Assembly: GCA_029889005.1 (NCBI GenBank)
Contig: GCA_029889005.1_4349.1
DNA: 44,477 bases
Source of the DNA: a phage
Direction: 5' to 3' (one strand)
The position numbers and the translations under genes are program-made. The notes under the pieces are model-generated. The model did no database searches. It was not told the origin of the DNA and worked only from the letters and a program-made list of their open reading frames with translations. Positions 8,270 through 26,768 of this stretch are shown in pieces (positions within the stretch are counted from its first letter, which is position 1; the number at the start of each line of letters is the position of its first letter).

Positions 8270-9400
8270 ATGGCCCGGAAGAAAATAACCGACGAACAGT
8301 TGCAGGAAGAATTGAACGCCGGTATGAAGAATGTAGATATCGCCCGTAAATACGGCATCTCAGACCGCGTAATTCGTATCCGTAAAGCGAAGCTGGCTAA
8401 GAAAGGCGTGGGCCACGGGCGCGACGTTAGCCACCTTGTGCCAGACGGCTACAAGATTAAAGGAACGTCGTCCCTGGTGGACGAGTTCGGCAACACTAAG
8501 TTGCAATGGGTTAAGACCGACGCTGATGCCGAACGTCAGGTTGAATTGATGAAAGCCGTAATAGAGGGCATGAAGTCAGAGATTACGCCCGTTGCGCCTG
8601 TTAAACCGGCACGAGCCAAACGTGACGATAAACTACTCAATCTTTACACGGTATCTGATTTCCATCTCGGTATGCTGGCATGGGCCGATGAGAGCGGCGA
8701 CGACTGGGACATGAAGATTGCAGAAGACCTGTTCTCTCGGTGGTTCGACGCGGCGTTTCAGAAAGCACCGGATGCAGGAACAGGAGTTATTAACCTGCTT
8801 GGGGACTTCGCACACTTCGATAGTCTTGATGCCGTTACCCCCGAGTCGCGCCATGTATTAGATGCGGATACTCGCTATCAGAAACTGGTACGTTACATGA
8901 TTCGTATGGTCCGCCGTGTTGTTGATATGGCGCTGGTTAAGCATCACACAGTAAAACTTTTAATCGTTCAAGGTAACCACGACCCTGTTGGCTCCGTATG
9001 GCTTGCCGAAATGTTCACGGTTTTATACTCAAACGACAGCCGAGTGATTGTTGATACGTCGCCGGATGTTTACAAGATGGTGCAACACGGCAAAACGACG
9101 CTGTTCTTCCATCACGGGCATAAAGCACGATTCGACGCTATCGAACCGGTTATGATTGCCAAGTTCCGTAAAGCGTTCGGCGAGAGTGTTTACAGCTACG
9201 CCCACGTAGGCCATCTGCACCACCAGAAGATTGTAGAAAGCCGTAACATGATTGTTGAGCAACACCGCACCTTAGCGGCTAAAGACGCCTACGCCTCTCG
9301 CGGCGGATGGATGTCGGGCCGCAGTGCAAATGTAATTACTTATAGCGCCGAATATGGCGAGGTCGCACGTTTAACTATTTCACCGGAGATGCTGGGATGA
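8270..9400 (+). CDS. Calcineurin-like metallophosphoesterase with N-terminal HTH-like region
   Basis: Motifs DFHLG, GDFAHFD, GNHD, HHGH, GHLHH typical of metallophosphoesterases. Confidence 0.7.
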   Translation: MARKKITDEQLQEELNAGMKNVDIARKYGISDRVIRIRKAKLAKKGVGHGRDVSHLVPDGYKIKGTSSLVDEFGNTKLQWVKTDADAERQVELMKAVIEGMKSEITPVAPVKPARAKRDDKLLNLYTVSDFHLGMLAWADESGDDWDMKIAEDLFSRWFDAAFQKAPDAGTGVINLLGDFAHFDSLDAVTPESRHVLDADTRYQKLVRYMIRMVRRVVDMALVKHHTVKLLIVQGNHDPVGSVWLAEMFTVLYSNDSRVIVDTSPDVYKMVQHGKTTLFFHHGHKARFDAIEPVMIAKFRKAFGESVYSYAHVGHLHHQKIVESRNMIVEQHRTLAAKDAYASRGGWMSGRSANVITYSAEYGEVARLTISPEMLG

Positions 9401-9885
9401 AAGATATTGTAATTTTCGATTTAGACGGGACATTGGCTGACGGTACCCATCGCTTACACCTGTTACCAAAAGATAACTACGGAGAAACGTGGGCGTGGAA
9501 GCCATTTAACATGGCCTGCAAAGATGACGCTCCGATATACGACAATATCCATTTGTGTAGCGTACTGTGGCATTCCGGACTTACTATAATTATCCTTACC
9601 GGGCGAAGTGATGACGCTGAGGAGGAGACTCGCGAATGGTTACGAGAGAATAACGTTAGGTTTGACACGCTAATCATGCGCAGCAAACACGACAACAGAA
9701 AAGACATCGTAATTAAAGAAGAGGTGTTGCGTGCTTTCGGACTGGAAAGAATCTTGTGTGCGTTCGACGACTCTCCAGCGGTAATAAAGCATTTCCGTGA
9801 CCTCGGCATAACCGCACACGCAGTTACCGAATACGACTGTAACGGGAACTCTACACACTTAAAACCACACGGGAGCGATAAATAA
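9397..9885 (+). CDS. HAD-superfamily phosphatase
   Basis: N-terminal FDLDGTL motif I, downstream LTGR and FDDSP motifs; start overlaps upstream stop. Confidence 0.65.
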   Translation: MKDIVIFDLDGTLADGTHRLHLLPKDNYGETWAWKPFNMACKDDAPIYDNIHLCSVLWHSGLTIIILTGRSDDAEEETREWLRENNVRFDTLIMRSKHDNRKDIVIKEEVLRAFGLERILCAFDDSPAVIKHFRDLGITAHAVTEYDCNGNSTHLKPHGSDK

Positions 9886-10439
9886 TGGCTAAGGTAATTA
9901 TTCTTAATGGCCCTGCGGGTTGCGGGAAAGACACGCTTGCTATGGCGCTGGTAGAAATGGGCTTTGCGAAAGGAACTACCAGTTTCAAGAATCCGATGTT
10001 CAATATTGCTATGGCTGCGTTAGGCCAGGATGCTTACCGCGAGTTTCTCGATGGCTACGACGACCGGGCGCGGAAAGAAAAGCCAGAGGGTTTCCTTAAC
10101 GGGTTGTCTCGGCGTCAGTTCATGATTGCCATTTCCGAGCAATTCATTAAACCGGTGTTCGGTGATGATTATTTCGGTAAGTATCTTGCCGGAAACTTGC
10201 CCGACGGCGACGAAGTTTTTGTGGTGTCTGATGGCGGGTTCGCCAGCGAAGTAGCCCCTATCGTTGCCGTGGGGCATGACGTGCGAATCGTCCGCCTCCA
10301 TCGTGACGGCTATACGTTCATCTGCGATAGCCGTGGCTATCTGTACGATGTTAGTGGTGTAAAAGATTACGACACCTACATCATACCGGGTGACGTTAAA
10401 TCGAACGTTATAGACATTGCTTTAAAATTAGGTTTGTAA
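9885..10439 (+). CDS. P-loop nucleotide/nucleoside monophosphate kinase-like protein
   Basis: Walker A GPAGCGKDT near N-terminus; start overlaps HAD gene stop. Confidence 0.65.
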   Translation: MAKVIILNGPAGCGKDTLAMALVEMGFAKGTTSFKNPMFNIAMAALGQDAYREFLDGYDDRARKEKPEGFLNGLSRRQFMIAISEQFIKPVFGDDYFGKYLAGNLPDGDEVFVVSDGGFASEVAPIVAVGHDVRIVRLHRDGYTFICDSRGYLYDVSGVKDYDTYIIPGDVKSNVIDIALKLGL

Positions 10440-10440
10440 G

Positions 10441-10470
10441 AAAAAGGCCCCGAAAGGGGCCTTAGTTTTA
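10441..10470. terminator. Bidirectional intrinsic terminator
   Basis: AGGCCCC-GAAA-GGGGCCT hairpin flanked by A-run and T-run between convergent gene ends. Confidence 0.7.
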
Positions 10471-13933: not shown

Positions 13934-14626
13934 TCACCCCTTCTTACAGTTATCAAAGTGCCACCTCTTTAGAAGAGATAGCGCCCCTTCGGTTCCGCAA
14001 TGTGGGCATACCCCGCGCGGGCGTTTCATTCCAGTAAGTTTATCTGAAATTTTCTTGACAGTCTCGCCCTTTAACGTATGGCCCTTCTTAAAACTTCCGG
14101 AGTTAGGTTTTCTATTAACCTTGCCAACGATTCTATTTGGGTCCGCGAACTGGCATTTCTTGCAGCAATATTTACGCGCTCGTGATTTAAAACGGTAGGG
14201 GATCGGCTGGTCGCATGTTACACATCGTTGTGGGTTTGCCATGTAATGCTCTATTCTGGCTTTTCTACTTGCAGTTTCCCCGGTAGCAATTCCTTTATTC
14301 CACGCCTTTTGCCCTAGATGTGCTTGTCTGAGATTTTCTATACGTTTATCAGAAAATTTAACACCAGTATTCAACCTGGACATCTCTATAGCCCAAGCCT
14401 CTTTCGCCAACTTAAAGGAATGTGAGTTAACTTTTGACCTTTGATTGTTTTTAGGGTTAATACACATAACCCTCCAGGCGAAAGCTAGTTCTTTAGTCCC
14501 GTGTATCTTATAGAGAAGCCAATGCGCAATAAAATGCTGTCTAGCGCTCAAAGATACAATATTGTCAAAAGTATCTCCACCACCCATGCATTTCGGGTCT
14601 ATGTGATGTTTTTTTGGTATACCCAC
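13934..14626 (-). CDS. Free-standing HNH homing endonuclease
   Basis: N-terminal HHIDPKCMGGGDTFDNIVSLSARQHFIAHW (HNH-like), several CxxC pairs and repeated K/G-rich DNA-binding-like motifs; GTG start; locally AT-rich versus flanks. Confidence 0.8.
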   Translation of the reverse strand: MGIPKKHHIDPKCMGGGDTFDNIVSLSARQHFIAHWLLYKIHGTKELAFAWRVMCINPKNNQRSKVNSHSFKLAKEAWAIEMSRLNTGVKFSDKRIENLRQAHLGQKAWNKGIATGETASRKARIEHYMANPQRCVTCDQPIPYRFKSRARKYCCKKCQFADPNRIVGKVNRKPNSGSFKKGHTLKGETVKKISDKLTGMKRPRGVCPHCGTEGALSLLKRWHFDNCKKG

Positions 14627-14739
14627 TAAACGGATTGATTTTTGCGTTCGATATTAACTGTTCATAGATTTTGGCGTAGTTCATGATTCACCCTTTTCAA
14701 TGGAGGATGGATTCATTATACCAACTACGCCAGATATTA

Positions 14740-14919
14740 CTATTCCTCAGACTTACGGCGACGACGCTTAGTGCCACCGCCGTTGTTGTGCGCTTCTTCG
14801 TTGTCCGGTTGGGTCGCAACCAGTTCATCCGCTTCTACAACACCGCGCACGGGTATCACCTGACCATCAACCATATCAACGTGGGTGTACTTTTCGCGGA
14901 TTACATAATTATCTGCCAT
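14740..14919 (-). CDS. Small acidic protein (59 aa), hypothetical
   Basis: ATG with AGGAAAGG 5 nt upstream; below ORF-track size cutoff; acidic with RRRRK tail. Confidence 0.35.
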   Translation of the reverse strand: MADNYVIREKYTHVDMVDGQVIPVRGVVEADELVATQPDNEEAHNNGGGTKRRRRKSEE

Positions 14920-14955
14920 GACCTTTCCTTATTACGGCCCCGAAGGGCCGCTGTA

Positions 14956-15177
14956 TTAAGACACAGTTGCTACAGTGCTGCTGGAGATAATATTACCATA
15001 CGCATCGTGAACAACCACTTTATACGTACCGGAGTCGGCGGCAGTGGTCGATGCTTTAGCATAGGTAGCTGCGGTAGCCCCGGCGATGGCGTTGTTATTC
15101 TTATACCACTGGTAAGAATATGGCTCCAGACCACCGGCTACCGTTACGGTCAGCGTCATAGTTTCACCTGTGGTCAC
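14956..15177 (-). CDS. Small Ig-like domain protein (possible capsid decoration)
   Basis: YQWYKNN ... SGTYKVVV pattern of bacterial Ig-like domains; internal ATG ~15159 has AGGTGA RBS and may be true start. Confidence 0.5.
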   Translation of the reverse strand: MTTGETMTLTVTVAGGLEPYSYQWYKNNNAIAGATAATYAKASTTAADSGTYKVVVHDAYGNIISSSTVATVS

Positions 15178-17141: not shown

Positions 17142-17405
17142 CTATTCCAGAATATTCCTCACGTAATCCTGCAACATGAACACTTTCAGTCTCAGTTGCC
17201 GTACACATTCTGCGTTCTGAACGTCGATAGCCAAATCCTCGTCGGCGTCGCTACTTGGCGCTGCCAGTTTGCACGGAGGCTGCATCATCGTCGTATCCGG
17301 TAATGGAATTAGCGTTTGCGACGGCGCGGGACTTGAGCAGGACGCGAGCATCGTCGAAAGTGCACACGCTGCGACCCGGCGTTTTAATGTATTTAACGAC
17401 TTCAC
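17142..17405 (-). CDS. Outer-membrane spanin (Rz1-like lipoprotein)
   Basis: GTG with AGGTGA RBS; signal peptide ending in lipobox LASC, Pro-rich mature part; starts inside the Rz-like gene in another frame and extends past its stop. Confidence 0.6.
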   Translation of the reverse strand: MKSLNTLKRRVAACALSTMLASCSSPAPSQTLIPLPDTTMMQPPCKLAAPSSDADEDLAIDVQNAECVRQLRLKVFMLQDYVRNILE

Positions 17406-17637
17406 GGGTAATCACCTCTGATTTCGTCTTGCCTTCGTTGTCGGCGGCGGCGGCCTTTGATTCGTCCTGCTGCTGCCGTTGTGTTTTCTTCGCTAACTCA
17501 GCCTGCGCTTTCTGCTGTTGCTGCGAAACGAGATTCGCCCGGCCTTCGTGCCAGCCGCTGCGGTACTGATAAATGCCGTGTGTGTAAGCCAGGATGATGA
17601 AACATGCTCCTGCTACGACGGTTGCTTTAAGATTCAT
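17251..17637 (-). CDS. Inner-membrane spanin (Rz-like)
   Basis: Strong AAGGAG RBS; N-terminal transmembrane segment then Gln/Lys/Ala-rich coiled-coil-like region; contains embedded Rz1-like ORF. Confidence 0.6.
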   Translation of the reverse strand: MNLKATVVAGACFIILAYTHGIYQYRSGWHEGRANLVSQQQQKAQAELAKKTQRQQQDESKAAAADNEGKTKSEVITREVVKYIKTPGRSVCTFDDARVLLKSRAVANANSITGYDDDAASVQTGSAK

Positions 17638-17650
17638 GTTTCTCCTTTCT

Positions 17651-17681
17651 CGATAAGTAAAGCCCCGCCTTAAAGCGGGGC
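17651..17681 (-). terminator. Hairpin terminator/attenuator upstream of spanin genes
   Basis: GCCCCGC-CTTAAA-GCGGGGC hairpin followed on minus strand by TTTACTTAT, then RBS of Rz-like gene. Confidence 0.45.
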
Positions 17682-17758
17682 GCTAGTCCTTATCATTTAA
17701 ACATAGAAACGGCGTAATCTAAGTAAACCTGTTACTTTTTACACAAGCAATAGAGTAT

Positions 17759-17890
17759 GGCCCTTCCGAACGCGTCAGCGTAACTACACTCAGGACTTAC
17801 GTCCCGCTCCGTTACCTGCCCGCGCCGCGGTCGCTTGTTCATACTTCACAAGCTCAGGTGGAGCTTAGCACATTTTCAGTGAAAAGTCAA
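17759..17890. repeat. Conserved ~130 bp non-coding element, copy 1
   Basis: Aligns base-for-base over long stretches with 30133..30265 (GGCCCTTCCGAA ... AACTACACTCA ... CCGCGGTCGCTTG ... TCACAAGCTCAG ... AGCTTAGCA ... AAAAGTCAA), with compensatory hairpin changes. Confidence 0.7.
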
Positions 17891-18256: not shown

Positions 18257-18716
18257 ATTCTGGCTTAGTAACCTTCGCCGCTTTGCTTACCGCCTCTACT
18301 CCATCGGCATCAGTAACTTTAACGAAGTATTCGCCGACCGCATTAACCGTCAGAGACAGAGCCTCCTCAGGCGCATTCACCACTTCCTTACCGTCTTTGT
18401 ACCAGGTCAGAGAATACGGCGCTTTGCCTGCCTTAACCTCGACAGTGATGGTTGCGCTGCCATCTGTAAGTTCAGTGTCTTTCGGTTGCACAGAGAAATA
18501 CACGTCACCAGCGTCCGCCAGATACGGAATTTCATAAAGCATACCAGCGGCAGAGAGTGCGATACCTGTCTTGTCTGCGTACGGCATCTCGTCTACAGGT
18601 ATACCTAGTACACTTTCATCCTCAACGTAGGTTACGTTCTCACCGGAGCCAGACACCCGAGCGTACTGGACTACGCGACGTGACGGCACATCAGTTACTT
18701 TGAAAAAACCCATCAT
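18255..18716 (-). CDS. Structural protein with C-terminal Ig-like domain
   Basis: C-terminal APYSLTWYKDGKEV ... GEYFVKVTDADG similar to the Ig-like ORF at 14956..15177. Confidence 0.5.
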   Translation of the reverse strand: MMGFFKVTDVPSRRVVQYARVSGSGENVTYVEDESVLGIPVDEMPYADKTGIALSAAGMLYEIPYLADAGDVYFSVQPKDTELTDGSATITVEVKAGKAPYSLTWYKDGKEVVNAPEEALSLTVNAVGEYFVKVTDADGVEAVSKAAKVTKPE

Positions 18717-19759
18717 TAATCCCCTTTCAGATAATCAGCAACACGTTTATCGAGTTCCGCCATCTGCTTAAGCGTAAGCGGATTCCCGAAACCATCTACA
18801 GATTTTACGCGAAACTCTTCCGGCGATATACCGCTGTTACGGAAAATCTTACCTCGCACCGGGCCGAGCGCCTGGTCCTGAAACCACGCCGGTTGTTGTT
18901 TAAGGAACTCGTAGTAAGTGGTGTCTGCGCTTACCTGAGTGCCACCTTCCGCGCCTTTAGCCGCGCGTTTTGCGCCTTTATCGAGGAAGTCGAACTCGGA
19001 ACTGATTACCGGAGCCGTGCACGACCGGCAGTTCGGATGGGCTGGGGGCATCGGCCCCTTACCAATTTCCCACGTCATCCCGTCTCTGACCCTGCAAATC
19101 GTACTGGTGCGGCTGTCAAGCGTTGACACCCACTCGTACTTCTCGATGATGTCGTCGTTCTGGCGGTACGTCTCGTTACGGGCCTCGTTGGATACGTGGG
19201 ACAGCGCGGTGCGGATTACCGTAGTCGCGTTACGTTCTGAGATGTCGGCTAGTCCACCAGCGCCAACAACATTCTTAACAATCTGCCGTGTGGTTTGACC
19301 TTGCACAAAGCCCATCTTAACTCCAGTTACAAGACGTGCTACTTCCGTTTCGCCCCATCCAGACATCAGCTTGGTGAAATCAACGGGCTTGTCGCTCAAT
19401 GATAATGGTTGAAACTCGGCAGCGGCCCATACCTGCTCAGCGGTAGGCGTAACAAATTCCGCGTCTACGTTGGCGGTCAGTGTCTTTACGTTCCACTCAG
19501 CCTCGTACGCCGCCAGTTCCTTAAGGTCGTCTGTTAGCTTTGTTTGCCAGTCACCCGTAATACCGGTTAGTGCTTCTTCCAGGTCGCGTAACAGTTTATT
19601 CAGTCGCGCAGTGCTGCGACCGTCGTCACCGAATAACAGCACCTGCCGTTTGATTTCGTCCCGCATCTCCTGAATGAACGGTGCTAGGTCTTTCACTTCA
19701 CCAGATGCGGTGCGTTGCAGCCAAATCTGGTGGCTGATTATTGATGTCAGTAAGCTCAT
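18716..19759 (-). CDS. Head morphogenesis protein (SPP1 gp7-like)
   Basis: 347 aa with conserved HPNCRSC-type motif; position after portal. Confidence 0.7.
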   Translation of the reverse strand: MSLLTSIISHQIWLQRTASGEVKDLAPFIQEMRDEIKRQVLLFGDDGRSTARLNKLLRDLEEALTGITGDWQTKLTDDLKELAAYEAEWNVKTLTANVDAEFVTPTAEQVWAAAEFQPLSLSDKPVDFTKLMSGWGETEVARLVTGVKMGFVQGQTTRQIVKNVVGAGGLADISERNATTVIRTALSHVSNEARNETYRQNDDIIEKYEWVSTLDSRTSTICRVRDGMTWEIGKGPMPPAHPNCRSCTAPVISSEFDFLDKGAKRAAKGAEGGTQVSADTTYYEFLKQQPAWFQDQALGPVRGKIFRNSGISPEEFRVKSVDGFGNPLTLKQMAELDKRVADYLKGD

Positions 19760-19840
19760 ATACCCTCCTGTTTCGATATGACAATCATATCAGTCGGTAA
19801 CGTATTGGCATAATCATACGCATTTAAGGTTAAAAAGAGC

Positions 19841-19872
19841 TTGATTAAATTCTACATTCAAATGTAGAATTT
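19841..19872 (+). promoter_or_regulatory. Promoter (TTGATT-N18-TAGAAT) overlapping a perfect 26 bp palindrome
   Basis: AAATTCTACATT-CA-AATGTAGAATT perfect inverted repeat covering spacer and -10; 30 nt upstream of 19902 ATG. Confidence 0.5.
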
Positions 19873-19901
19873 AAACGTACACTTAAACAGGAGAAATACA
19901 C

Positions 19902-20555
19902 ATGAAACTGCAAACATTAGAGTTCCCTTATGGAGAAATCACTTTTGACCGTGAAAACTTTATTAACGTAAACGAGCTGGTTGACCAGATGAACCGTTGG
20001 CGTTTAGACAACGGCATGGGGGCCAGAGAGCTTCGCCAGGTCATGGCAACGGATGGCTTCAAGATTTTCAAGGAGGAATGCGAAAAACAACTCGGAATCG
20101 AGAATGCCATAAGGGCGACGAAAGGCCGAAACGGTCGCACCTTTGCATGTCTCCATCTGGCAGTATATATTGCTGAGCAATACAGCGCCTATTTCCATTT
20201 CCTCGTTATCGACCGCTTTATCACACAACGGCAGGTAGAACTACGAAACATTGGCGCGGTGAGCTTTGTCGAGCTTAACGCTGCCGTTAGTCGAATGATC
20301 GAGCGCACGGAGGGAAGAATTGGCCACAGTGGACACTTCATACAGGTGGCTAAAGCGGTAAAGGAATCCGTAGATATCCGCGACGTAACGGGTTTCGATA
20401 CATGGGACTCTCAGGATGCGAAGACCAATCAGTTGCGAAGTGACATCCAGAAAGCTCTGGTGACGCTTCTTGACATGGAGGCCGTTAATGCATGGGGTGA
20501 ACTGAAAGAGGCGATACCTCGGGTTGTGCGTAAATGTGCGGCTAATATACGTTAA
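19902..20555 (+). CDS. KilA-N domain DNA-binding protein
   Basis: KGRNGRTFACLHLAVYIAEQYSAYFHFLV matches KilA-N/APSES core pattern; antisense to flanking structural genes. Confidence 0.6.
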   Translation: MKLQTLEFPYGEITFDRENFINVNELVDQMNRWRLDNGMGARELRQVMATDGFKIFKEECEKQLGIENAIRATKGRNGRTFACLHLAVYIAEQYSAYFHFLVIDRFITQRQVELRNIGAVSFVELNAAVSRMIERTEGRIGHSGHFIQVAKAVKESVDIRDVTGFDTWDSQDAKTNQLRSDIQKALVTLLDMEAVNAWGELKEAIPRVVRKCAANIR

Positions 20556-20557
20556 AA

Positions 20558-20588
20558 CTAAGGCCCCTAGCGGGGCCTTTCTATTTAC
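20558..20588. terminator. Bidirectional intrinsic terminator
   Basis: AAGGCCCC-TAGC-GGGGCCTT hairpin then TCTATTT; between convergent gene ends. Confidence 0.7.
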
Positions 20589-22054
20589 TCCTGTTGTTGC
20601 GCGGACTGCGGAATTTCTCCTGCTACCTGAGCAACCGCACCCAACGGCAGCGGTGCGTCCCCAATAGCGTTCTGAATGTCCTCATCGGTCCAGTCGGTTA
20701 CGCCAGCCTTACGCAACGCGGCGTAGTAAGCAGTAGCTGGTAGCAGGCCTGCGTTAATGTCCGCCATCCACTGAGCGCGGTCCTGAGCTGTCATCGGTTG
20801 CAGGAAGAACTCCATGTTCAGCTTGAATTCAATCTCTGTGTCTTCGCGCAACCCTAGCATCGCCGCTACCCAGCGCAATGCCTCGGTATACGCCATACTT
20901 ACGTTACGTGCGATTGTCGCCATAACAGACGTATCCGCGCCACGTTGCAGGCGGGCGGATTCGGCGGTGATTTGCTGCGTCGGGGTGATAAGCTGCGCAC
21001 CAATCTGAATGGCCTGATTCTCTTTATCCAGCATATTCTGTTTGGCGAGGTTGTTCTCTCCTGCCTGAACAAGAAATGCATTGCCGCCGTAACCGATGTT
21101 ATGGCCCGAACGCGACCCCATGCGCACGCCGTGAGGGTTGGCTTCTTTCCACTGTTCCATGCTCATGTTCTCGCCAGGGGCGATGAACAGAGTAGGCTGG
21201 CCCACAACGAAGCTGGATTCCTCGTTGTCCGCGCTGTTGCGGAAATGCCCGATATTAAGCTCAGCTAACGGCAGCAAAGGTGCATCATCAATGGTCTCAT
21301 CGTTGTTGCTTGCCCCAATGAACGTGAACGGGATTTTGCCCCGTAACTGTTCGCCAAGTTCCGGGAATATTTCGATTACATCATCCTGAGCGCCACCTTC
21401 GGCATCGAAGCGATAGATTCGCTGGCGGTAGCGCCCGTCAATCAAATCGAGAACGCGGTATTGTTCACCGAACTTTGTTTCGAACTCAGCGCCTGGTTCC
21501 GAGTATTCCCACACCTCACGTAACACGACCATCGTCACACGGTTCACTGAGCCGATGCGGGTCAGTCGCCAGTTGATGATGTTCTCAGCAGTGTAGAATG
21601 CAATGACCGGGTTTAGTAACCCCGCGTTCTGTTCGGCTGCCGTTGCCGCGGCTGTCTCCGGGGCGTCCACCAGCAACCCGCCACGACCCACCGAATCAAT
21701 CTCCATTAGCGTATCCTGTGCGTGCTGCCACAGCCCGACACCAGAACCGTCCGCGTTACGTAACAGGTACTCCAGTTCAGGCGGTATAATCTGCTCGGGG
21801 TCTTTGCGCATGACACTGCCGACCATCCCCACCAGCGTGCGTTTGGTGAAATTGTAACAGATAGCGCCGTTCTCGTATTCTTCCTGGCGCTGTGCCGCGT
21901 AGGTCGGGTCCGGCTCATTCTTCCCAACGTTGCGCAGATAGCGGATAAGGTCGCCTTCCAGCGCGTGGCGCACCTTCTGCCATTTATCGAAGTGATGCAG
22001 CCATTCCCGGTGTTTTGTCTTAACACCCTGATTCTGACCGTTCATAGTTAACAT
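20585..22054 (-). CDS. Portal protein
   Basis: 489 aa ORF immediately downstream of large terminase; size and position. Confidence 0.7.
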   Translation of the reverse strand: MLTMNGQNQGVKTKHREWLHHFDKWQKVRHALEGDLIRYLRNVGKNEPDPTYAAQRQEEYENGAICYNFTKRTLVGMVGSVMRKDPEQIIPPELEYLLRNADGSGVGLWQHAQDTLMEIDSVGRGGLLVDAPETAAATAAEQNAGLLNPVIAFYTAENIINWRLTRIGSVNRVTMVVLREVWEYSEPGAEFETKFGEQYRVLDLIDGRYRQRIYRFDAEGGAQDDVIEIFPELGEQLRGKIPFTFIGASNNDETIDDAPLLPLAELNIGHFRNSADNEESSFVVGQPTLFIAPGENMSMEQWKEANPHGVRMGSRSGHNIGYGGNAFLVQAGENNLAKQNMLDKENQAIQIGAQLITPTQQITAESARLQRGADTSVMATIARNVSMAYTEALRWVAAMLGLREDTEIEFKLNMEFFLQPMTAQDRAQWMADINAGLLPATAYYAALRKAGVTDWTDEDIQNAIGDAPLPLGAVAQVAGEIPQSAQQQE

Positions 22055-25190: not shown

Positions 25191-25647
25191 CTTTGTTCAG
25201 ATTGAAGCGGTTAATCAGTTCACGGCGGCGCTCCATAAGTTTATCTACCTGCCGTAAGTGGTGCTCTATGTGGGCGTCAATCCACACTATTTCAGATTCA
25301 CCAGTCGCGGATTCTACGCTGAGTTTCTCGTATTCGTTGTTAGTCATTATTTACGCTCTCCCCACATGCGATTGAGATACTTGTTCTTGTCCGGCCCCGG
25401 GAAACTGTTACGTTTCATCAGTTCCTCGCGTGTCGGGAACGGGGTGTGACTGACTTTATGGCCTACTCGTAATGGTTGGCTTACTTGACCTTGTTCGCTC
25501 ATTTCTTCTCTCCTGCATAAGCTGCTTTAAGTGTCTGCATCGCAGCGAACCAGAACGCGTCCGCTGGAATGCTGTTGCTCAGGTTACTAACTGCGATGCG
25601 CGCCATCAGTTGCGCGTCTTTGAATGCTTCGATATCTGTGATTTTCA

Positions 25648-25845
25648 TTAGTTATTCTCCAGTATTTCTAACGCTTTCACGATGTAACGTTTACGTAAAA
25701 CATCAGTCTGCGCGCTATTAGCCCTGCGTATGTAGCCCGCAGCGGCCCTCATCTGTAGTTTTTCCACCGAACCATTCCCTATAACTGATGCGATACATTT
25801 AACTTCGAGTTCTTCGGTTATTTCTATCGTCGATACGTTGCCCAT
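25648..25845 (-). CDS. Small protein with GYIRRANSA-TD-LR module
   Basis: 65 aa; shares AAAGYIRRANSAQTDVLRKRYIVKALE with the 28021..28509 product. Confidence 0.5.
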   Translation of the reverse strand: MGNVSTIEITEELEVKCIASVIGNGSVEKLQMRAAAGYIRRANSAQTDVLRKRYIVKALEILENN

Positions 25846-26228: not shown

Positions 26229-26768
26229 TCAGCCTTTCACCGCGCGTCCAATAGCAACCGCCTCTTGCCACGGCTTACCGTCGAACAATGCCAGCCGCCC
26301 GGCGGTACGGCGGCGCAGGCCGAGTAACGGTTTGCCGTTCTGGTTGATGAACAGCGCCAGCTTAGCCCGCAGAGTCGTGACGTCACCAGAACGCAGTGCC
26401 TTACCTGTGCCAGTAGTAGCCGCAATCACACCGGCACCAGCGTTATACACCAGGTCGCACACTGCGTCGAACTGAGCCTGTGTCAGTGAGTGATGCGCTG
26501 CAGCGTCAACGGCGGCTACGGCCTTAGCCATATCGCGATTGAGTAGCAGAAGACCCTGGCCGGGCGTGATGGTCTGCCCCGCCTTAACATGCGGGCCATA
26601 GCTTCCATACCCAATAGTCAGGTACTTCTCATTCGGTGTAGCGCGATACGCGGTTCCGCGGAATCCCTCGAACGCGGCAGTGAATTTGATGCCATTATCT
26701 GAAATATTTCGAGACACGCTTATGCCCTCCGTACGACAGCCCCGCCTGACGAATCTGACGCAGCGCAA
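26229..26768 (-). CDS. Endolysin (phage lysozyme-like)
   Basis: FEGFRGTAYRATPNEKYLTIGYG N-terminal catalytic-region pattern and QFDAVCDLVYNAG core; likely true start is GTG ~26717 preceded by GGAGGG. Confidence 0.8.
   Translation of the reverse strand: MRCVRFVRRGCRTEGISVSRNISDNGIKFTAAFEGFRGTAYRATPNEKYLTIGYGSYGPHVKAGQTITPGQGLLLLNRDMAKAVAAVDAAAHHSLTQAQFDAVCDLVYNAGAGVIAATTGTGKALRSGDVTTLRAKLALFINQNGKPLLGLRRRTAGRLALFDGKPWQEAVAIGRAVKG

Follow-up and report, generated by a model that had tools for sequence, protein, structure and literature searches.

Introduction

Phage "morons" are autonomous promoter-gene-terminator units located between late-operon genes, and have been described for lambdoid and HK97-type phages. 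Lambdoid phages have immunity modules of repressor and operator, in which alleles of the operator and of the recognition helix are matched and are exchanged by recombination. Among the DNA-binding domains that phages and large DNA viruses encode, KilA-N is one of the most common. The literature that we searched contains no described operator or binding site of a phage KilA-N protein; the sole relevant find is BstA, a KilA-N-like protein with a C-terminal domain, whose cognate DNA element alone suppresses its activity (PMC8585504). This element, aba, spans the upstream region and 5' end of bstA itself (PMC8585504). Here we analyze a perfect inverted repeat over the candidate promoter of a KilA-N family gene in a phage contig of 44,477 nucleotides (GCA_029889005.1_4349.1, from assembly GCA_029889005.1; hereafter the window), which is essentially the complete genome of a virulent Jersey-like siphophage. 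Within the literature searched, which has nothing on this cassette or on Jerseyvirus transcription, the repeat is the first candidate operator for a phage KilA-N protein.

A perfect inverted repeat overlaps a candidate promoter

The longest perfect inverted repeat anywhere in the 44.5-kb window is found 5' of the KilA-N gene, at 19845-19874. It is made of two perfect 14-nt arms, 30 bp in all, with the core AAATTCTACATT-CA-AATGTAGAATTT, and it covers the spacer and -10 of TTGATT-18-TAGAAT, a sigma-70-like candidate promoter identified by a consensus scan. The features of this region are as follows.

19841-19846, + strand: -35 hexamer TTGATT (promoter scan)
19845-19858: left arm of the repeat, TTAAATTCTACATT, 14 nt, 100% complementary to the right arm (repeat search)
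19859-19860: center of the repeat, CA, 2 nt, not self-complementary
19861-19874: right arm of the repeat, AATGTAGAATTTAA, containing the -10
19865-19870, + strand: -10 hexamer TAGAAT (promoter scan)
19889-19893, + strand: Shine-Dalgarno sequence AGGAG, 8 nt 5' of the ATG at 19902 (read from the sequence; kept in relatives)
19902-20555, + strand: KilA-N family gene, 217 aa, whose product databases call "amidase"
20560-20579: G+C-rich hairpin terminator with T-rich runs on both sides, common to the converging KilA-N and portal genes

An earlier note on this DNA had described a perfect 26-bp palindrome sitting over the -10. That sequence is present and perfect, and the scan does place TAGAAT within the right arm; however, the arms extend 2 bp further on each side, giving 30 bp, and the CA center is not self-complementary, so the element is a perfect inverted repeat but not an uninterrupted palindrome. 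The same note had put the gene antisense between the portal and head-morphogenesis genes, with a promoter and terminator of its own on either side. The gene coordinates and strands bear this out, and scans find TTGATT-18-TAGAAT upstream and the hairpin at 20560-20579 downstream.

A 14-nt arm was reached in 0 of 2000 dinucleotide shuffles of the 100 bp 5' of the ATG (p <= 0.0005). For the 12-nt half-site there is no second exact copy in the window, and near-matches are at chance level. At the same -35 position, relatives have TTGACA, TTGCAA, TTGACG or TTGCAT. Transcription would be expected to start near 19875-19877, leaving the repeat upstream of the transcript, and a repeat so placed would act as DNA, not as mRNA structure. 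In the record of Salmonella phage ZCSE7 (OQ507916.1), moreover, a run of N masks precisely the promoter and repeat; this may reflect assembly or sequencing trouble caused by the palindrome.

A cassette shared between phage genera

The promoter with its repeat, the KilA-N gene and the terminator together make up a segment that is also present in phages of another genus.

19833-20582, + strand: cassette of promoter with repeat, KilA-N gene and terminator, 750 bp (blastn boundaries)

Compared by blastn with Vi II-E1 and SB28, which like ASO78B, KFS-SE2 and their kin belong to or resemble the genus Macdonaldcampvirus, the window aligns over 19833/19831-20582 at 76-78% identity. The shared DNA thus runs from 8 bp 5' of the -35 to the end of the terminator, and beyond it only two short unrelated pieces per Macdonaldcampvirus genome match the window. 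Jersey shares the equivalent segment with Vi II-E1 and SB28. In Macdonaldcampvirus-type phages the KilA-N protein is 84-89% identical and its gene lies antisense between tape-measure and minor-tail genes, and in a metagenomic relative, L048 (70% identity), the gene lies between replication and terminase genes. The gene has its own predicted promoter and terminator, mobility boundaries at both, and three different insertion sites. Since one segment is shared at different insertion sites, the promoter, repeat, gene and terminator move together as a 750-bp unit, and these alignments support a self-contained unit that is mobile between phage genera.

A second shared cassette, of about 700 bp and 77% identity, is found at 14385-15083 in Jersey and 17143-17840 in Vi II-E1. 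It too lies in the late region in antisense orientation, and its product is a Roi/anti-repressor-like DNA-binding protein; the window lacks this cassette.

Repeat types and a hypervariable patch vary together

Comparison of the loci reveals five types of promoter region, each found with one version of a short segment of the KilA-N protein. The shuffle p values given below refer to the upstream 100 bp.

Type A: AAATTCTACATT-(CA or TG)-AATGTAGAATTT, with TTGATT or TTGCAA; window, EcoPhCCP1, Macdonaldcampvirus; protein patch G[AT]RE[LI]RQVMATD...; p <= 0.0005
Type B: AAATGGTATAT-N4-ATATACCATTT, directly after TTGACA; Jersey, FSL SP-101, Kenya phages, SB28; protein patch GFKHLRQLMTT...; p = 0.0015
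Type C: GAATACTA-N10/11-TAGTATTC, directly after TTGACG, with the -10 TAGTAT in the right arm; S55, LP31, nctD30; protein patch G[ED]KNLSQLL...; p = 0.05
Type E: AGTTCTAT-N6-ATAGAACT at -49, downstream of TTGACT-16-TATACT; L048; protein patch as in type C; p = 0.02
Type D: AAATTA-N6-TAATTT only, near a near-consensus promoter TTGCAT-18-TATAAT; SE2-like phages; protein patch LQPRNLAQILKTDD...; p = 0.56

Measured from the -35 and the ATG, these non-homologous repeats occupy the same place. In the window a dyad-symmetric site overlaps the core promoter of the gene, and types B and C are similar; type E has a weaker copy with 6-nt arms (GTTCTA-N8-TAGAAC) upstream, such that two repeats flank its promoter. 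Repeat A is present in 60 records of the phage collection, repeat B in 121, and type D-like loci make up about 190 of 342 (an estimate from 191 records at 60-80% protein identity). Two of the distant homologues have clear repeats of their own: in L036 a 10+5+10 repeat immediately follows TTGATT and carries TACAAT in its right arm, and in L040 a 10+13+10 repeat contains TAGAAT. The motifs GTTCTA and TAGAAC also recur at type C and E promoters (about -102 from the ATG in L026-L028 and L013; about -110 and -49 in L048). Their TTCTA core is also present in the type A half-site, and they may be secondary sites or a common half-site core.

The corresponding variation in the protein is confined to one part of the gene.

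20019-20150, + strand: codons 40-83, hypervariable patch (alignment, segment identities, quartets, pN/pS)
20151-20552, + strand: codons 84-217, end of the KilA-N core and helical C-terminal domain, near-invariant in relatives

In the protein alignment the C-terminal two-thirds are near-invariant, residues 40-83 are hypervariable, and in every locus read a given repeat type is accompanied by one patch version. An AlphaFold2 model (pLDDT 80) has two N-terminal beta strands, helices at 23-36, 44-48 and 51-64, a beta hairpin at 70-82, a conserved core helix at 84-94 and an all-helical C-terminal half; the patch thus comprises helices 44-48 and 51-64 and the beta hairpin. In APSES domains, the second helix pair and beta hairpin presumably form the recognition helix and wing, and on this model the patch would be the recognition helix and wing of the protein.

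Because types A and B are both present in two genera, a two-by-two comparison is possible. We used a quartet of the window (A, genus 1), Jersey (B, genus 1), Vi II-E1 (A, genus 2) and SB28 (B, genus 2), and counted the sites that group by repeat type or by genus.

Repeat: 7 sites by type, 0 by genus
Codons 1-39, between repeat and patch: 2 by type, 9 by genus
Codons 40-83: 14 by type, 4 by genus
Codons 84-217: 5 by type, 36 by genus
Terminator: 0 by type, 5 by genus

The repeat and patch differ from all other cassette segments (Fisher p = 2.3e-9), and two other quartets agree. Judged by these site patterns, two discontiguous segments share one history, while the DNA between and after them follows genus. 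The repeat is identical at 29 of 29 positions between the window and Vi II-E1, over a cassette that is 77.6% identical as a whole. Between types, synonymous sites of the patch are saturated (pS 0.69-0.90, versus 0.27-0.48 in the flanks of same-genus pairs), and the type B patch across genera has pN 0.06 and pS 0.67. These divergence values indicate that the repeat/patch types are old alleles kept by purifying selection. An operator and its recognition surface would be expected to vary together, and we find repeat and patch paired in all loci read, together with incongruence in the quartets.

About 38 Jerseyvirus records (AG11, the ER series, ST521 and others) carry both kinds of repeat, in tandem B and A promoters, with a B-type protein. 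In these phages the B promoter is followed by a 61-bp inserted segment bearing the A promoter. The -35 of the latter has decayed (TTGATT > TTGGTT > TCGGTT), with the 28 arm bases of A unchanged, and the B-type protein keeps a B repeat on a promoter with a good -35.

The candidate reader of the repeat

We searched for phage proteins that could read the repeat. Every window open reading frame (ORF) of 50 aa or more was compared with Jersey, Vi II-E1 and SB28, and the KilA-N gene alone proved to be shared at high identity. None of the other ORFs of this size exceeds 47% identity over a substantial length to Macdonaldcampvirus, and none separates an A from a B genome. Two further candidates were rejected: a 49-aa ORF (25499-25648) is shared but is the same in A and B genomes and so does not track type, and the Roi-like gene, common to Jersey and Vi II-E1, is absent from the window. 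As no other phage protein tracks repeat type, the product of the cassette itself is the most economical candidate.

The repeat is probably a protein-bound operator of some kind. For the fuller proposal, in which a dimer of the KilA-N protein binds the repeat and represses its own promoter, and in which matched operator/patch pairs are exchanged, we judge the chances to be even. In this scheme, transcription by the host sigma-70 RNA polymerase would begin at TTGATT-18-TAGAAT early in the infection cycle, and the product would combine an N-terminal KilA-N/APSES DNA-binding domain with the conserved helical C-terminal domain. A dimer would bind two half-sites of 12-14 bp over the spacer and -10 and block polymerase, which would limit synthesis of the protein itself and so constitute negative autoregulation. 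The operator and residues 40-83 would be matched allelic pairs (A, B, C and E), swapped between phages as a specificity module. Throughout, promoter activity, dimerization and binding are inferred, as are the direction of regulation and the part that the protein plays in the phage. The "tight dimeric repression" of the earlier note is a plausible reading of the same features.

A different regulator is a rather unlikely reader. A host transcription factor or another phage regulator could time KilA-N expression through the same site, since a position over the -10 suits any repressor; the A repeat is kept in phages encoding only a B-type KilA-N protein, and the earlier note had mentioned other DNA-binding genes in the genome. 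However, the cassette is the only substantial sequence common to the genera with identical repeats, no other ORF tracks type, and the Roi-like protein is absent from the window. A host factor would not account for phages of the same hosts having four or five repeat types with no relation to one another, nor for the co-variation of these types with residues 40-83. BLAST found no repeat-like sequence in 5,426 E. coli genomes, a search that would miss isolated 12-bp half-sites, which argues within that limit against an origin from a host operator. The position of the repeat and its co-variation with the patch point to autorepression by the KilA-N protein rather than regulation by other helix-turn-helix (HTH) proteins.

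Structure of the repeat and neighboring transcription

The repeat could also act by its structure, and here the transcription of the neighboring genes matters.

18716-19759, - strand: Mu F-like head-morphogenesis gene
19784-19811, - strand: extended -10 promoter of the Mu F-like gene, ATGCCA-16-TG-n-TATGAT, divergent from the cassette and lying outside it (promoter scan)
20585-22054, - strand: portal gene (DUF4055)

Over 19700-20650 the window shares 97.6% identity with Escherichia phage EcoPhCCP1 and about 84% with Salmonella phage Jersey. In this region the KilA-N gene lies between the portal and Mu F-like genes and is antisense to these and to the large terminase gene. The terminator at 20560-20579 looks bidirectional, and in phage ASO78B the equivalent site bears terminator annotations on both strands. 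The motif of the Mu F-like promoter, CTGATATGAT, is kept in Jersey-type relatives. The cassette and its terminator appear to split the late operon, the Mu F-like gene having a separate promoter. A second antisense block is found in the late region at 8270-10470, where three + strand genes encode a phosphoesterase-like protein (weak match), a PNKP-type HAD phosphatase (Pfam E = 3e-20) and a 184-aa ORF with no family; at the end of this block, at 10437-10470, is a hairpin similar in sequence to the KilA-N terminator.

As single-stranded DNA the repeat has a hairpin of -9.8 kcal/mol, which is strong for its composition (z = -7.3). In addition, the center of the repeat flips only by full reverse-complementation, and single-step intermediates were not seen among the loci compared. 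Type A centers read CA in the window, L003 and ER11, and TG in AG11, all Macdonaldcampvirus and the 97.6%-identical EcoPhCCP1; type B centers read CTAT in Jersey and ATAG in L015 and SE-W109. This pattern suggests recurrent loop inversion mediated by a hairpin, through template switching.

Flips of whole centers (CA to TG, CTAT to ATAG) and a strong hairpin would fit a repeat that acted as a cruciform or hairpin in promoter melting, replication or recombination, or as an RNA hairpin in read-through transcripts, with its types arising by recombination at a palindromic hot spot. The tandem phages fit as well, in that the junction of B and A promoters falls at the repeat and the A repeat lies in the 5' untranslated region of the B-promoter transcript. 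We nevertheless regard such a role as improbable. At single promoters the repeat lies upstream of the predicted start, is shielded by the terminator from antisense read-through and is upstream of the Mu F-like promoter; because the terminator and the position of this promoter keep the repeat off neighboring transcripts, a role at the DNA level is likelier than one in RNA. An Rfam search over the repeat and terminator returned no family, with sub-threshold noise only. Arm sequence, not symmetry alone, is kept where divergence is saturated, the window agreeing with Vi II-E1 at 29/29 positions and Jersey with SB28 at 11+11, and structure alone leaves the co-variation with the protein patch unexplained.

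A last possibility for the arms is that the left one is a leftward -10, giving a face-to-face bidirectional promoter that would also serve the head-morphogenesis gene. By symmetry the - strand does carry the same TAGAAT hexamer (19854->19849). But the hexamers 16-18 nt upstream of it on that strand (CGTTTA, GTTTAA, ACGTTT) match the -35 at no more than 2 of 6 positions and the scan reported no - strand promoter there, the Mu F-like gene is preceded by a conserved extended -10 promoter of its own (19811->19784), and in Macdonaldcampvirus the same repeat adjoins different genes. We consider a leftward promoter hardly credible.

Identity of the protein

The 217-aa product scores 20.4 bits (E = 4.6e-4) against Pfam KilA-N (PF04383), below the gathering cut-off of 23.8, with residues 13-105 aligned to profile positions 10-100 of 107. 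The gene is carried by 342 phage records, nearly all of them Salmonella phages, and the close family (>=70% identity) forms 35 clusters confined to these phages. An exhaustive phmmer search added about 90 relatives of similar length at 22-35% identity, and 31 of the 41 aligned full-length distant relatives match KilA-N (best E = 7.1e-18), which places the protein in the family by transitivity. The model contains the beta strands, helix-turn-helix and wing of the KilA-N/APSES fold. The assignment to KilA-N made in the earlier note therefore holds at family and fold level, with homologues that belong to the family and a matching fold, though the protein's own Pfam score is sub-threshold. The annotators of Vi II-E1 had already recorded a P1 KilA-like DNA-binding domain in their protein. 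The C-terminal domain is all-helical and has no named family.

Among distant homologues (24-26% identity), L044 and L046, from unrelated metagenomic phage contigs, adjoin portal genes in the same orientation, and L044 also has an ADP-ribosyltransferase-like gene and a second KilA-N gene nearby. Searches of IMG/VR with single distant proteins returned one locus or none each.

In PHROGs the protein falls in phrog_6095, which is named "amidase", and this name is the source of the label in many records. We rejected an amidase or endolysin function: no amidase family is found in Pfam or NCBIfam, and the fold is that of a DNA-binding domain and a helical bundle. Membership in a lysis cassette was likewise rejected, as the KilA-N gene lies between the portal and Mu F-like genes and the endolysin and spanin-like ORFs are elsewhere.

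17142-17405 and 17251-17637, - strand: ORFs whose positional counterparts in EcoPhCCP1 and Jersey are annotated as Rz-like spanin genes
26229-26768: lysozyme-type endolysin (Pfam E = 1e-25)

The architecture of the protein raises one more explanation, by analogy with BstA. The repeat might be a cognate recognition element for the main activity of the protein, a self mark against co-infecting relatives comparable to aba. A KilA-N protein with a type-specific DNA element at its own 5' end, old and maintained specificity alleles, and a near-invariant, effector-like C-terminal domain are all in keeping with such a mark. Homology to BstA was not found, however (hhalign probability 0.25%, BLASTP E 0.056, no PADLOC BstA match), and aba has terminal direct repeats rather than a dyad. 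Moreover, simple autoregulation suffices to explain an element that falls exactly on the core promoter, and type D lacks an element of this kind. A self mark of this kind therefore has a slim chance. The fuller self/non-self version, which would come on top of autoregulation and in which the C-terminal domain would act on DNA or a host factor during infection and the protein's own repeat would exempt or direct it, seems no less doubtful. If it were true, co-infecting relatives of another type would be disadvantaged, and a 750-bp mobile cassette would carry a parallel to BstA-aba in function, independent in evolution.

Discussion

We propose that the inverted repeat is an operator through which the KilA-N protein represses its own promoter. 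Several findings weigh against this proposal. The most numerous type, D, has a repeat with 6-nt arms that is not above chance (p = 0.56), so autoregulation via a long palindrome is not a family-wide requirement. Enrichment of promoter repeats is only marginal among distant homologues of 22-33% identity (combined p = 0.047), and several loci have none. A perfect A repeat persists without an A-type protein in the approximately 38 tandem records, and 11 of 43 residues distinguish the A-type patch of one genus from that of the other, yet their half-sites are identical. The repeat and patch are separated by only about 170 bp, and the quartet test makes co-inheritance by linkage less likely but leaves some room for it; that test rests on few independent exchange events, with one B-type Macdonaldcampvirus. 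Lastly, the perfect symmetry could be kept in part by hairpin-templated correction rather than by selection for binding, as the flips of the center hint.

In kind, the regulatory design is probably an ordinary one, an autoregulatory dyad operator that overlaps a promoter. The cassette offers testable protein-site pairs, comprising natural specificity variants, natural recombinants and a 44-residue patch that is predicted to set specificity. It also corrects the "amidase" label that has spread via the PHROG name. Virulent Salmonella and E. coli siphophages of two genera exchange this compact, putatively self-regulated unit, antisense in their late operons. Should the protein prove toxic or active in phage-phage competition, the orthogonal operator/regulator pairs could serve as regulatory parts.

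Each of the known systems introduced above resembles the cassette in some respects. Like morons, it has a sigma-70-like promoter, an intrinsic terminator, an insertion among late genes at genus-dependent sites, and boundaries at both ends. Unlike morons, it resides in virulent phages with no prophage expression, is antisense to its neighbors and carries a putative operator of its own, and in contrast to their sporadic occurrence it is universal within Jerseyvirus (342 records). As in lambdoid immunity modules, a dyad overlaps the core promoter, the types are discrete and old, with repeat and predicted recognition surface changing in step, and the flanks follow another phylogeny. It differs from these modules in having one putative operator, with no tripartite array and no lysogeny switch, and its protein has the KilA-N/APSES fold, with predicted binding, in place of an HTH of the Cro/CI type. 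The N-terminal fold and conserved core of the protein match those of P1 KilA (PF04383) and the fungal APSES protein Mbp1; in contrast to PF04383 members, it falls below the Pfam threshold and has a C-terminal domain with no named family. With BstA-aba the cassette has in common a KilA-N-like N-terminal domain followed by a second domain, and a variant-specific DNA element at the gene's own 5' end. BstA is a prophage protein of 307 aa, whereas the cassette protein has 217 aa, is carried by virulent phages and shows no detectable homology to it; aba is 63 bp long, has terminal direct repeats and extends into coding sequence, whereas the cassette element is a promoter-overlapping dyad. By analogy, BstA-aba would be the nearest functional counterpart among KilA-N proteins.

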